NCBI RefSeq assembly: GCF_044324875.1
Contig: NZ_CP172185.1
Source: Escherichia coli
GTDB taxonomy: Bacteria; Pseudomonadota; Gammaproteobacteria; Enterobacterales; Enterobacteriaceae
Strand: one strand, 5' to 3'
DNA: 64,000 nt
Within the stretch, counting starts at the first letter, position 1, and each line of letters opens with the position of its first letter. Shown piece after piece: positions 46,601 through 55,600 of the stretch. Position numbers: made by a program.

Positions 46601-49600
46601 TGAAACAGTATGCGTGCGATGCGCTGTTCAGCATGAAGACCGTCAGCGGTGAGGAGGGGTATATTTATTGCCTCGCGGAACACCAGAGTACGGAAAACGC
46701 GTTTATGGCGTTCAGGATGCTCAGATATGCGGTGGCGGCGATGCAGCGTCACTTTGAACAGCACCATGAGCTGCCGCTGGTGATCCCGCTGTTATTCTAC
46801 CACGGTGAGCGGAGCCCGTACCCGTACAGCATGAACTGGCTGGAGTGTTTCAGAAATCCGGAACTTGCTGCTAAAATCTACACCAGACCGTTCCACCTGG
46901 TGGACGTGACGGTACTGGATGACGATGAGATAATGCAACACCGCCGAATGGGGGCACTGACGCTGCTGATGAAACACAGCCGCAGCCGCGACATCATGCT
47001 GCAGATGGACAGGCTGGTTCAGCTGATACAGACTTCACTGAATGAAGAGCTGGCGAAGGCTCTGTTCCACTATCTGCTGAACGGCAGTGAACATGTGACG
47101 GTAAGGTTTTTGCAGACGCTGGCGGAGCGGCTGCCACAGCATGAGGGCAACATAATGACACTGGCTGAACAACTGAAGCAGGAAGGGGAAGTCAAGGGAT
47201 TTGAGCGCGGTATTGCCCAGGGTATGGAGCGCGGTAAGCTAGAAGGCAGAATGGAAGGCAGAATGGAAGGCCGTGCCGAAGGGCGACTCGAAGGACAACT
47301 GGAAGGCAAACTGGAAACGGCGCGTAATATGTTGGCTGAAGGAATGGGGCTTCAGACCATCATGAAAATCACGGGATTGAGTGAAGAACAGCTGAAAAAA
47401 ATCAGCCACTGAAGCATTGAGGCGTGATGTATAGCACGCCTCGTTCTGTCTGACAGTATTTTGTTTCCTGTGTATTTGGTCGTTTCAGGTCAACCTTTGT
47501 CGGGAGCCTGGCGTTGGTACCTGCTGAGGAAAGAGGGAACTGGACGCAGAGTGACAGTCTGCGAATTGCAGGAAGAGGATGCGAAAGTGTTCGCTTCTTC
47601 CATTGTGTCCCTGATTTAAATTCGGATACTCAAATCTGAAGCGGTGACTCGTATACGTGTGAGTCACCGGGACTACCGCTTGAGTGATGAAAAATAGTCG
47701 TGTTAACGCAAAGCTGAAGTGACACATCTTATTTCAGCGAATGCGTTTGACCGCCTTACTATACACTTTTGAGCATTCTCTTTTCCTGACGGAAACCACG
47801 AAGACGACAATCTTCTCGTCTATAACCTGATATACAAGGCAAAAAACCGTCAAGAGCAGGAGCAGGCGGTCCGCCAGACAGTCCATTGCATAAGGCTATC
47901 AGCTATATCCTGAAACGACCTGATGAGCTGTGCCGTTTTCTGGATGATGGCTCTGTGCCACCGGACAACAATATCTGCGAACGAGCCATCCGCCCGGTCA
48001 CGCTGGGGCGAAAGGCATGGTTATTCGCAGGCTCGCTGATGGCCGGCAAACGCGCGGCACAGATAATGAGTCTTCTGGAAACAGCAAAGCGTAATGGTCT
48101 GGAGCCACATGCCTGGCTGACGGACGTACTGACGCGCCTGCCGGAGTGGCCTGAGGACCGACTGGCTGAGCTGCTGCCTCTTGAGGGATTTACCTTCTCC
48201 GGGTGACACAACACCTGCCGTCAGGTCTTTGCACACCGGGCCATGGCCTGCTGTCGGGCGTTGAGCGCCTGACAGCGGGTTATTGAGAAAGTCAGTCACC
48301 ATGCGCCTGGCTGACAGTCAGGACCTGCACGTCAGCGCCTCCCTTACCCTGGTCAGGACTTCACTGCCTGCCACAAACTCCCGTGTCAGTACTTCGCGGC
48401 CTGACGCGCTCACCCTACTCAGTCCTTCAGAGCCCGCCTCCGGTACCTGGCAAGGCAGACGCCGGGGCGCAATAAAATAAATCAACCATCGCAGGGCGGC
48501 GATCATTCGCAACAACCGCTGATGACGAGCCCAGAAACGTGTCAAGACGATTTCACCGGAACCGTTTACCCCAAGCAGAGCGGCAATAGATCCGCCTGGT
48601 ACTGTGAAGGATGCATCGCGCAGTGCTTTCTGCCCGTTTCGCCAGGTGACAGTAACGCCATTAACGACAATACCCGCAGATTGCATCATTACTTCTCCCT
48701 TTTCCCGGCTTTAATTCCCTGCACCAGCGTACTGGTAGTAACCTTCAGAAGGTCGATATACGTAGGTACCGGGCCGTTTTCTGTGCTCAGGGAATCGACA
48801 TAGAGCACACCGCCGTAGTGTGCGCCGGTTTCACGCGCAACCTGACGCGCTGGTTTATCGGAAACCGTACTCTCACTAAATACCGCTGGGATATTATTTT
48901 TCTTCACTATATCAACCACTTTACGTACCTGCTGGGGTGTTCCTTGTTGATCGGCATTTATCGGCCACAGATAAAGCTCTTTTAGCCCCAAATCGCGTGC
49001 GAGATAAGAAAAAGCCCCTTCACTGGTGACCATCCATCTTTTATTCTCAGGGAGTTCAGCAATCTGCTTACGCAGGGGGGCAAGGGTTTGGGTAATCTTG
49101 GCTTTATAAGTATCGGCATTACGTTGGTATGTTTTTGCATTTGCCGGATCGTATTTTATCAACGCATCGCGAATATTATCGACGTAAATCAAAGCATTAT
49201 CTGGCGACATCCAGGCATGAGGGTTAGGTTTTCCCTCGTAGGGGCCTTCGGTGATCCCTACTGGCGTCACACCCGAAGAGACAATCACTTCTGGAACACC
49301 ACTGAGATGCTGGTAAAAGCGCTGGAACCACAATTCCAGATTCATACCGTTGGCGAGAATCAGTTGTGCCCCCTGCGCACGTTTAATATCGCCAGGGGTA
49401 GGCTGATACTCATGAATTTCTGCACCGGGCCTGGTTATGGATGAGACTTCTGCAGCATCTCCAGCCACGTTTTTGGCCATATCTGCGATGATGGTAAATG
49501 TTGTAATGACCTTGAATTTTTCAGTTGCACTCGCCTGAAATGCTATCGAGCAGGTGAGGGCGAGGCACCCCAGGAGCATGGTTACTTTTTTTATTGAGTG

Positions 49601-52600: not shown

Positions 52601-55600
52601 GATATCTATGGACAGAAAATTATAGATGAGTTTCATGATGTTGGAGTAAATACAGATTATGTGATTTTCAATAATCAAATGCTTACACCGCTGGCATCTA
52701 TACTAGTGAATCAATTAAATGGTTCAAGAACGATTATAACACGCAAACAGAATTATCCCCCACGAATGACATTTGAAGAAAAGCTGAAAATAGATGAATT
52801 GATTACACATCTGACATATGATGATAAAAAGGAAGTTATTACAATATTAATTGACGGCCATGAACCTGAGTTGAGTGAATATATTATACAGCGAATGCCA
52901 GATGCCCGAGTCGTGATGGACGCAGGCTCTCTTCGGGAGAGTAATTTAAATCTGGCTAAATACACAGACTATCTGGTTGCCAGTGAAAACTTTGCCTGTG
53001 AACTATCTGGAATTGAAAAATTTACATCTGATATACAGTTAAACGAAGCTTTAACAGAACTTAATAAATTGTCCCGAGGTCAGCCCTTTATTACTCTTGG
53101 TGAGAGAGGATGTGCATATCTGAAGAATGGAATACCTACAATATCACCAGCTTTTATTTGTAATGCAATCGATACAACAGGTGCCGGTGATGTTTTTCAT
53201 GGTGCTTTTACGTATGGTGTTCATTACAACTGGCATATTGATAATATTATTTTGTTTGCCAGTCTGGCTGCAGCTATTTCTGTTGAAAAAAAAGGTGTCC
53301 GCGAATCCATACCTGATTTAGCTGATGTCCATAATGCTATAAATCAATATGAAAGAAGTAGAGAAAAATACTTTACTTCATTTTAAGTTATACACAAGCA
53401 AGAGGAAATATGATGTTAGTTTCTATAGAGAATATGCTTAATCGTGCCCTTGTACATCAGTACGCAGTTGGTCAGTTTAATATCAATAACCTGGAGTGGA
53501 CAGGTACTGTGTTAAATGTTGCACAAAAATTACGTTCTCCGGTTATTTTAGGCGTCTCCGGTGGCACTATAAAACATATGCTTGGGCTGAAATGTATTCA
53601 CGATATTGTTGTTAACGCAATGGAATTCCTGGAAATAGATGTGCCGGTGGCTTTACATCTTGATCACGGTCAGTCTTATGAGGCTTGTGAGGCGGCAATT
53701 AAAGCAGGTTTCAGCTCAGTAATGTTTGACGGTTCACATATGCCTTTTGCCGAAAATCTGGCAATAACAAAACGTCTGGTGAAGTATGCCCATCGTCGGG
53801 GAGTATCTGTGGAAGCAGAGCTAGGCACGATTGCAGGAAGTGAAGATGGCATTGTTAATTCCCGAGTGATTTATGCAGATCCTACAGAATGTAAGCAACT
53901 TGTTGAGGAGACAGGAGTGGATTGTCTGGCTGCAGCACTTGGTTCCACACATGGATTATATAAAGGAAAAGCAAAACTCGGTTTTGCGGAAATGGAACAT
54001 ATATCACAGTTGGTAAAAGTACCCCTGGTACTTCATGGGGGCACAGGTATTTCAGATACGGATATGAAAAAAGCTATTTCACTTGGCACAGCAAAAATCA
54101 ATGTTAATACCGAAAATATGTATGCGTGGTGTTTGTCAGTGAAAGAACAGTTTGAACATAAGGGGGAACATGATATTAATGATCCCCGAAAAGTTATTAC
54201 GAAAGGATTGCAGCCAGTTGCAGAACGAGTGGCAGAACGAATGAGCCTGTTCGGCTCTGTTGGACAGTCCCTCTGAACTGTTACAGTTTCCTGCAGGTCG
54301 TCATTCATTCAGGCAATCTGCAGGATTGAACTATATTAGACATCCAGGAATAATTCCCTTCCACAGGGGGCACGGAGGATTGAAATTGCACTGAATGGGG
54401 AATTTGTTAACGTCGCCCTTACCATGGTCAGGATTTCACGCCCTGTTACAAACACTCGTGTCAGTATTTCTTGGCCCTATTCAGTACTCCTCACTACCTG
54501 CCAACGACACCGCTAGGAAAAACGCCCGCGTGTAATAAAATAAATCAGCCATCGCAGGGCGCCGATCATTCGCATGCATCGCTGATGACGCGCCCAAACA
54601 AGCGTCAAGATGAGTTAACCTGAACAATTCGTTATAAGCCCGGTGCCTTCCACAAAGAAGTTGTCAACCCGTGATCGACCAAGCTCAACTGTTCCTGATA
54701 TACAGCCCGCCATTTTTCGAGCAATTCCTGATAAAGCTCATGTTTTCTTTTGTCCGGAACATGCTACCTTTCCCAGCTCACCAGGCATTCTCCCGTTTCG
54801 TCCATAGATGAGTAGATACCTGCCCCTACACCAGCAGCAATCGCACAGCCCAGTGCCGTTGCCTCTTTGACTACAGGAACATTAACTGGTAGCCCTGACA
54901 CATCAGCCAGAATCTGGCTCCAGAGTTCTCCTTTTGCACCACCTCCCGCAAATACCAGAGATGAAGGGTAAGCGTACAGCGAGGGCCGTATTGACGGGGA
55001 TGTGTTATTCAGCTGGCAGTGCTATGCGCCACGGAAGCAGTTCGCTGACCCGGTTGACCGGCCAGTCTGCTATGACGCCAAGCACATGGCGAAGGTAGCT
55101 TTCTGGATCCACGTCATTCAGTTTGCACGTCCCTATCAGGCTGTACAGTAGCGCTCCCCGCTCACCACCATGGCCAGAGCCGAAGAACAGGAAGTTTTTA
55201 CGACCCAGACTTACCGCCCGCAGGGCATTTTCAGCGATGTTGTTGTCGATTTCCACCCAGCCATCGTTCGCATAGTACGTCAGTGCCGGCCACTGGTTAA
55301 GTGCGTACGCGAACGCCTTCGCCAACTCTGAGTGTCGCGACAGGGTCTTCATCTTTTCACGCAACCAGCTTTCCAGGGATTTCAACAGCGGTTTCGTTTT
55401 TCGCTGACGTTCAGCAAGCCGCTGCTCTGCCGGCATTCCCCTTATATCCGCCTCTATGGCGTACAACTGACCGATCTGCTCCAGGGCTTCTTCCGTCAGT
55501 GCTGACGGGATGCGGACGTGCACATCGTGGATCTTTCGGCGGGCATGAGCCCAGCAGGCAGCTTCCGTTATCCCACCATTGCGATACAGCTCGTTGAACC

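Follow-up and report, generated by a model that had tools for sequence, protein, structure and literature searches.

The two diverged direct repeats that bracket sitA and a PTS gene block in the Escherichia coli DNA analysed here (the window, 64,000 nucleotides) are, we are confident, two independent and inactive right-end relics of insertion sequences (IS) from one subgroup of the IS66 family, and the 5.9 kb between them does not constitute one unit. The pair is ordinary IS debris, and the locus is a heavily scrambled E. coli genomic island.

The repeat pair and its relatives

The original prediction of a same-orientation repeat pair of about 200-225 bp was confirmed. Copy A (48331-48562, 232 nt) and copy B (54406-54625, 220 nt, with the tip of its right inverted repeat, IRR, reaching 54630) are direct repeats, and MAFFT and global alignment gave 170 identical positions, or 78% of the ungapped columns, with a single gap of 13 nt and a longest identical run of 14 nt. 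A repeat search of the window resolved two blocks, 48331-48401/54406-54476 (71 nt, 79%) and 48459-48562/54522-54625 (104 nt, 82%). Within the window, blastn returned the match at E=2e-32, which argues against chance, and found no third copy. The predicted coordinates (48325-48548 and 54410-54612) were a few bases off on the left and 14-19 nt short on the right; there the similarity takes in the terminal inverted repeat of the IS and stops at 48562 in copy A and at 54625-54630 in copy B. A shared conserved gene fragment had been named as the explanation that would overturn the prediction; the similarity proved to be that of an element terminus and not of a gene fragment, so the prediction held on this point.

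Judged by sequence, both copies correspond to the non-coding 3' tail and IRR of elements in an IS66 subgroup called ISEc49/pRK1-like, a name that rests on PGAP labels (PGAP calls one relative an ISEc49-family transposase). The intact relative on the E. coli W plasmid pRK1 spans 2,773 bp and comprises tnpA-tnpB-tnpC and the tail. Its inverted repeats, GTAATGTTCCGGGGAACTCATCTTCAC and GTCAATATGAGTTCGCCGGAATATTAC, are 27 nt long and 85% complementary with tips GTAA...TTAC, and it is surrounded by an 8-bp target duplication, GTTTTCTG. In six further copies, which together with pRK1 were used to define the IRR, the tail begins at the tnpC stop and ends ...CCGGAAnnTTAC, beyond which the flanks diverge; the family consensus of the terminal inverted repeat is GTCAATATGAGTTCnCCGGAAnnTTAC. 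The layout of the subgroup is tnpC, then an unusually long non-coding tail of ~360 nt, closed by the 27-bp IRR. Three relatives (L008, L009 and L015) have a full-length tnpC, and tnpA and tnpB lie upstream in the intact ones. Both window copies are truncated and lack tnpA and tnpB, and are therefore relics rather than complete IS66 members.

The tnpC C-terminus on the A side matches that of the pRK1 element at 84% and that of ISEc49 at 76% on the amino-acid level over ~89 aa (tblastx), and the ~360-nt tail has the same order of hairpin, phased 9-mers, A-rich box and 27-bp IRR. However, the window tails are only 71-78% identical to any sampled intact element, and the window copies are truncated and immobile, A being without the last 5 nt of its IRR and B without everything upstream of the tail. 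Among the sampled tails, the nearest to copy B is that of A (78% versus 71-74%), and the two may share a sub-lineage or an ancient local link. ISEc8, ISEc23 and ISCro1, which occur in the same window and at related loci, resemble this subgroup in their DDE transposase TnpC, GTAA...TTAC ends and 8-bp target duplication, but their own right ends come within ~25-37 nt of the tnpC stop, with no long tail and no TCAGKMCYT array. A census of 100,044 species genomes with a degenerate tail motif gave six matches, one in Enterobacteriaceae and the others looking like chance; therefore, either the subgroup is narrow or the search pattern was too strict. A search of the literature on ISEc49 and IS66 end structure found nothing useful.

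Copy A and the junction with sitB

The features on this side of the segment are as follows.

47852..48206, plus strand: 3' remnant of tnpC (IS66 transposase), 5'-truncated; ORF 47886-48206
48207..48562, plus strand: ISEc49/pRK1-like non-coding 3' tail including copy A (48331-48562), from alignment with intact tails
48214-48279: hairpin in the A-side tail
48318, 48353, 48386 and 48419: four phased 9-mers TCAGKMCYT in the A-side tail, counted against shuffles
48541-48562: partial IRR of copy A, 22 of 27 nt
48556..48562, no strand: 7-nt microhomology CCGGAAC at the IS-sitB junction, from comparison of the window with intact sitB (L010) and with complete-IRR relics (L011, L012)
48556..48689, minus strand: sitB', the first ~45 codons of an Mn/Fe ABC-transporter ATPase (NF011630, E=1.9e-20, positions 1-46 of 274; alignment to intact sitB)

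The tnpC ORF matches NCBIfam NF033517 (E=1.5e-33) over 47886-48203, at profile positions 304-387 of 387, the C-terminal 84 only, and in blastn the window from 47852 to 48561 corresponds at 78% to positions 2057-2767 of the intact pRK1 IS. As copy A is preceded by this C-terminal remnant, it represents the terminus of an element truncated on its 5' side; it had been taken for the terminus of an IS66-family remnant next to a truncated sitB, and both points stand, the first on the ORF and on the alignment with the intact relative. The source element would have lost its first ~2 kb.

What truncated sitB can be read from the junction, where the final 5 nt of the IRR are missing and sitB' ends within its Walker-A motif. 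The sequence CCGGAAC is common to the IRR of the IS and to the Walker-A codons of intact sitB. The A-type relics in L011 and L012 (96-99% identity) match the window through CCGGAAC and then continue with ATGAC, which completes the IRR, and beyond it lies a different ABC-ATPase fragment. The window past CCGGAAC reads CGTTTACCCC, exactly the sequence of intact sitB. Since the same relic with a complete IRR lies beside another gene elsewhere, sitB was cut by a deletion ending at the IS and not by insertion. A later deletion or illegitimate recombination may have fused the IRR of copy A to sitB at the 7-nt microhomology, removing the IRR tip and the remainder of sitB. The genes sitC and sitD are missing as well. 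A sitB origin was considered for the ABC-ATPase fragment behind the complete IRR in L011 and rejected; this fragment is also missing from the window.

The arrangement resembles known IS-adjacent deletions and island erosion in that one IS end is kept and fused to a truncated neighbouring gene, and in that the flanks on both sides match the less eroded island of strain AR_0085. It differs from a transposase-mediated adjacent deletion, which would leave the junction precisely at the IS tip; here the junction falls on the 7-nt microhomology, 5 nt short of the end of the IRR.

Copy B and lsrK

On the other side, the window contains the following features.

54406..54630, plus strand: copy B, solo 3' tail of a related IS
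54428, 54461 and 54481: degenerate 9-mers in copy B
54604-54630: full-length degenerate IRR of copy B, 20/27 to the family consensus
54632..54967, minus strand: lsrK 3' fragment (NF008187, E=1.6e-31; compared with intact lsrK of AR_0085)
54968..57409, minus strand: intact ISEc8 (IS66 family) inside lsrK, with the 8-bp duplication GATGAAGG at 54960-54967 and 57410-57417

Copy B is solitary beside the 3' end of lsrK, as had been predicted. Its IRR ends 1 nt from the lsrK stop codon (54632-54634, the native stop; lsrK has also acquired a nonsense codon at 54766), and no tnpC lies upstream of it. When two IS left ends were aligned locally to either strand of 54277-54420, the scores stayed within the range of shuffled controls, giving no left inverted repeat beside copy B. 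Sequence at ≥99% identity to copy B occurs only in the eight genomes carrying the PTS-lsr island, and the B-lsrK junction is identical in the seven genomes covering most of the query. The source element of copy B probably inserted 1 nt downstream of the lsrK stop and would later have lost everything 5' of the tail. The ISEc8 copy in lsrK provides an example of a clean IS66 junction within the window.

The segment between the copies

The intervening segment contains the following features.

48689..49603, minus strand: sitA, intact, 304 aa (ORF; RefSeq annotation of 99.5%-identical loci; metal ABC substrate-binding families)
49790..~49866, minus strand: third IS66 relic, the inverted right end of an ISEc23-like element (GTAAGTGTTAAGTTAAGCGAACGCCGTATTGACGCTTA...)
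50220..54276, plus strand: PTS IIA, IIB and IIC (ascorbate-type), a PfkB-family sugar kinase and a class II aldolase (NCBIfam matches; RefSeq annotation of 99.1%-identical loci)

The third relic, which aligns with the ISEc23 IRR in L001 and with a remnant in L002 and carries ~40 nt of a tnpC 3' end, lies where the sitA block meets the PTS block. The stretches 47400-49864 and 49928-54967 match different genome sets, and 49867-49930 has no counterpart among the complete E. coli genomes searched. At least nine genomes carry the IS remnant, A, sitB' and sitA without the PTS block, and seven to eight carry the PTS block through fba, B and lsrK without A and sitA; the two arrays stand side by side in none of 5,426 complete E. 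coli genomes. In AR_0085, where sitABCD is intact, an A-type relic lies 160 kb from the PTS-B-lsr array. As the A-sitB' and B-lsrK junctions each occur without the other block, both pre-date the juxtaposition. The homology, the boundaries, the junction sequences and the separate occurrence of the blocks were observed directly; from them we infer an order of events in which the sitB'-sitA block and the PTS-kinase-aldolase block were brought together piecemeal and joined at the third IS66 relic. A single-step origin, in which an AR_0085-like island was tandemly duplicated or circularly permuted, would also fit the gene order of the window, which is further eroded downstream.

Alternative explanations

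Mobilisation or capture of the 5.9 kb between two ends of one element type, as had been suggested, was not supported. Movement of sitA and the PTS genes as a unit, in a composite transposon or by a left-hand IS reading through to the IRR of B as a surrogate right end, is highly improbable, and we regard it as largely refuted because the blocks are found separately, each with its own junction. Such movement would accord with A and B being genuine termini of one IS sub-lineage, in direct orientation and with cargo genes between them, and the left end of the A element could in principle pair with the IRR of B in the correct orientation. However, that element is truncated at ~47852, and within the window no left end lies upstream of A or to the left of B; A and B are both right ends in one orientation, with no inverted left/right pair of the kind that would mark a composite transposon. 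The segment is internally composite at the third relic, copy A meets sitB' at a microhomology join without the IRR tip, and the A-to-B segment, which as a mobile unit should recur with a target duplication, is present in none of the complete E. coli genomes. A local segmental duplication, with recombination between the copies now deleting or amplifying the 6-kb block, deserves equally little credence. It would explain the direct orientation and the finding that A is the closest sampled relative of B, but the upstream sequence continues into tnpC for A and not for B, in other genomes A and B are found in independent contexts, and the longest identical run between copies that agree at 78% falls short of the ~20-30 bp that RecA-dependent recombination usually needs.

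It is also quite unlikely that the ~220-bp unit is a MITE-like non-autonomous element or a module selected in its own right, such as an lsrK terminator. Tail-only matches occur in 1,280 of the 5,426 genomes, at up to 13 places per genome, the tail is conserved above neighbouring third-codon positions, and on the minus strand both copies have a small hairpin followed by a T-rich run ~70 nt past the lsrK stop. Against this, the hairpin amounts to a 5-bp consensus match, as frequent as chance would predict, Rfam match and covariation are both absent, and B-type sequence is confined to a single locus. Solo copies differ in their left boundary and are often cut by other IS (L006, L014), no left inverted repeat accompanies copy B, and the candidate 8-mers flanking it agree at only four of eight positions. 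Two independent right-end relics remain our preferred reading.

The long 3' tail

The ~360-nt tail of ISEc49/pRK1-like elements is better conserved than nearby third-codon positions and seems to be subject to selection. We tentatively consider, as a possibility rather than an expectation, that it is a functional cis-acting module and not spacer DNA. Such a module would be an asymmetric array at the right end only, with four to five phased TCAGKMCYT sites and a conserved hairpin. The 9-mers, spaced at ~33 nt or three helical turns, are candidate cis-acting binding sites; TnpA, TnpB or TnpC might bind the array and thereby control end choice or transposition frequency. To our knowledge, the mechanism of IS66 transposition is still poorly understood, as are these three proteins. 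Tandem Repeats Finder reported nothing on the tail because the sub-repeats are too diverged, and the 9-mers were instead counted by regular expression against shuffles. A structured RNA was considered and rejected: neither copy had an Rfam match at the gathering score, and a permissive threshold gave one sub-threshold match in A (E=0.16), attributable to chance, and nothing in B. For eight tails compared with RNAalifold the covariation term was unfavourable, and only 3 of the 69 pairs showed compensatory changes. A promoter and terminator scan found no promoter-like site in copy A and terminator-like matches at chance frequency.

Implications

For annotation, the pair is best labelled as IS66-family (ISEc49-like) right-end remnants and not as boundaries of a mobile cassette, and sitB' as a deletion product. 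The locus also illustrates the reshuffling of one island family, PTS-lsr-sit, which is less eroded in AR_0085; no fewer than four IS66-family elements took part in this over 10 kb. The wider interest is limited to one point, the long, apparently selected and repeat-bearing 3' tail of this IS subgroup; if the tail is indeed a functional module, copies A and B would be fossil examples of it.

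Two right ends of one IS66 subgroup

The original prediction of a diverged direct repeat pair around sitA and the PTS block (PTS IIA/IIB/IIC, a PfkB-family sugar kinase and the class II aldolase fba) is borne out. A repeat search of the window aligned 48331-48401 with 54406-54476 (79%) and 48459-48562 with 54522-54625 (82%), and MAFFT placed copy A, beside the truncated sitB', and copy B, beside the 3' end of lsrK, in a single colinear unit with only one larger gap. Global alignment gave 170 identities between 232 and 220 nt (78% of ungapped columns) and a maximum of 14 nt of uninterrupted identity; blastn within the window matched A to B at E=2e-32 and found no third copy. 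The predicted coordinates were slightly short on the right, where the similarity continues through the terminal inverted repeat.

Features at the repeat junctions (window coordinates)
47886-48206: ORF directly left of copy A, C-terminus of IS66-family transposase tnpC (NF033517, E=1.5e-33)
48318, 48353, 48386, 48419: four direct TCAGKMCYT 9-mers, spacing 35, 33 and 33 nt
48556-48562: 7-nt microhomology CCGGAAC at the IS-sitB junction, 5 nt inside the right inverted repeat (IRR)
49790-~49866: third IS66 relic, inverted ISEc23-like right end of ~77 nt, at the seam of the sitA and PTS blocks
54604-54630: full-length 27-nt IRR of copy B, 20/27 to the family consensus
54968-57409, minus strand: intact ISEc8 (IS66 family) inserted in lsrK, with 8-bp target duplication GATGAAGG (region 54960-57417)

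Both copies were also correctly identified as IS66 termini. Given the tnpC C-terminus beside A, the fixed position after tnpC, the intact elements and their common tail terminus, the repeat is the non-coding 3' tail plus IRR of an ISEc49/pRK1-like IS66 subgroup. This ~220-nt unit is present in 1,280 of 5,426 complete E. coli genomes, at up to 13 places per genome and mostly without annotation; in O111, STEC and other-strain loci it sits at a constant distance, ~140 nt past the IS66-family tnpC stop. Intact elements were recovered from strain FDAARGOS_1258, with a transposase that PGAP assigns to the ISEc49 family, and from the E. coli W plasmid pRK1, where the 2,773-bp element has 27-nt inverted repeats (GTAATGTTCCGGGGAACTCATCTTCAC and GTCAATATGAGTTCGCCGGAATATTAC) and is bracketed by an 8-bp duplication (GTTTTCTG). 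In an alignment of eleven tails, all intact copies terminate in ...CCGGAAnnTTAC, beyond which the flanks diverge. Unlike this subgroup, ISEc8 and ISEc23, the canonical IS66 elements of the region, have only ~25-37 nt after tnpC. Plasmid occurrences of the tail are almost exclusively from Escherichia and Shigella, and scanning 100,044 species genomes with a degenerate motif turned up essentially none outside Enterobacteriaceae. In many STEC genomes (L007 and the O157 and O111 loci, H121-H135) the tail is partly tandem-duplicated, giving two-piece matches over ~498 nt against a 348-nt query.

A conserved tail with repeated 9-mers

Between diverged pairs of intact elements, tail identity is 71-88%, compared with 50-65% at third-codon positions in the adjacent 330 nt of tnpC; because the tail is the more conserved, this comparison suggests purifying selection on it. 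A 12-17-bp hairpin lies directly past the tnpC stop, and the four TCAGKMCYT 9-mers compare with 0.1 expected from shuffles. Four to five such 9-mers at ~33-nt spacing also occur in the tails of loci L009 and L013 (five in a Serratia plasmid copy), and copy B retains degenerate forms. They are confined to the right-end tail of this subgroup, being absent elsewhere in the IS and on its minus strand, and we infer that they are putative right-end-specific sites for protein binding. Rfam models did not match the tail, covariation was absent, and neither a promoter nor a terminator could be convincingly placed in it.

Origins of the two junctions

Left of 54406, neither a relationship to tnpC nor any similarity to an IS left end was found. 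Just 8 genomes carry B-type sequence (at least 99% identity), each time in the context fba-B-lsrK. With its full-length IRR, copy B is therefore a right end that has long stood alone and is fixed in the PTS-lsr island. Its IRR stops 1 nt short of the lsrK stop-codon complement (54632-54634), and the terminal codon is the same in the intact lsrK of AR_0085. Farther along, lsrK is interrupted by ISEc8 (ends GTAAGCG...CGCTTAC), picks up again over 57410-57671 before breaking off; compared with AR_0085, the downstream lsrK fragment has acquired a nonsense codon at 54766 since that insertion.

ISEc8 is a clean IS66 insertion, in contrast to the nearby A and B junctions. The remnant carrying copy A aligns with positions 2057-2767 of the pRK1 element, and so lacks the first ~2 kb and the final few bases. 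Its near-identical counterparts in AR_0085 and TUM1886 (96-99%) share sequence with the window as far as ...GATTTCACCGGAAC and continue with ATGAC, giving a complete 27-nt IRR, beyond which lies a 33-codon fragment of an ABC ATPase other than sitB. At this point the window continues CGTTTACCCC..., exactly the Walker-A codons of intact sitB. Since CCGGAAC occurs in intact sitB as well as in these relics, the A-sitB' junction is a microhomology of 7 nt, which marks it as the product of an illegitimate join or deletion and not of a transposition event. The flanking genes fit this reading: ECCNB12-2-type genomes have the order Rpn-RelE'-IS'-A-sitB'-sitA-IS remnant-DoxX-dolP-yebF, and in AR_0085 the same left and right flanks lie ~179 kb apart, with sitDCBA intact on the right.

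Elsewhere, the window carries three copies of an IS21-family element (705-3123, 29233-31651 and 62892-64000; istA 548 aa, istB 332 aa), an ISCro1-like IS66 tnpC (3194-4504) and an ALIL pseudoknot, an IS3-family frameshift signal (33631-33747). A UvrD-like helicase spans two overlapping ORFs (43509-46354; 377 and 571 aa), with ankyrin repeats on the second. NCBIfam gives it no name and its PADLOC matches are GajB-like but weak; it may be a defence-related or a frameshifted gene.

A composite segment

The proposal that the intervening 5.9 kb was mobilised or captured between A and B is not supported, since these are two right ends in the same orientation with no left end, the blocks occur separately and the segment is composite. 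The genomes that match window 47400-49864 (IS'-A-sitB'-sitA) and those that match 49928-54967 (PTS-kinase-aldolase-B-lsrK), at 99.1-99.5%, form disjoint sets, and among the 5,426 complete E. coli genomes none has the two blocks together in one place; AR_0085 carries an A-type relic and PTS-B-lsr 160 kb apart, with sitABCD intact. From this separate occurrence and the third relic at the seam, it follows that both repeat junctions are older than the juxtaposition of the blocks. The ~64 nt after that relic (49867-49930) have no match in the same genomes. Islands of the AR_0085 type have an ISEc23 right end adjoining the PTS block at the position that corresponds to 49930.

AR_0085 (NZ_CP029741.1, 2956645-2986000; the ISEc23-bearing locus L001, L022, and L011 with its complete-IRR relic) preserves the island in a less eroded state, in the order ISEc23, PTS, kinase, fba, copy B, lsrKR, lsrACDBFG, intact sitDCBA, IS remnant, DoxX and more genes to an integrase. 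Set against this order, the window, with sitB'A ahead of PTS, resembles the product of a circular permutation, or of a duplication and a later deletion. Taken as a whole, the locus fits known biology: a mosaic genomic island that carries relics of IS elements and deletions associated with them.
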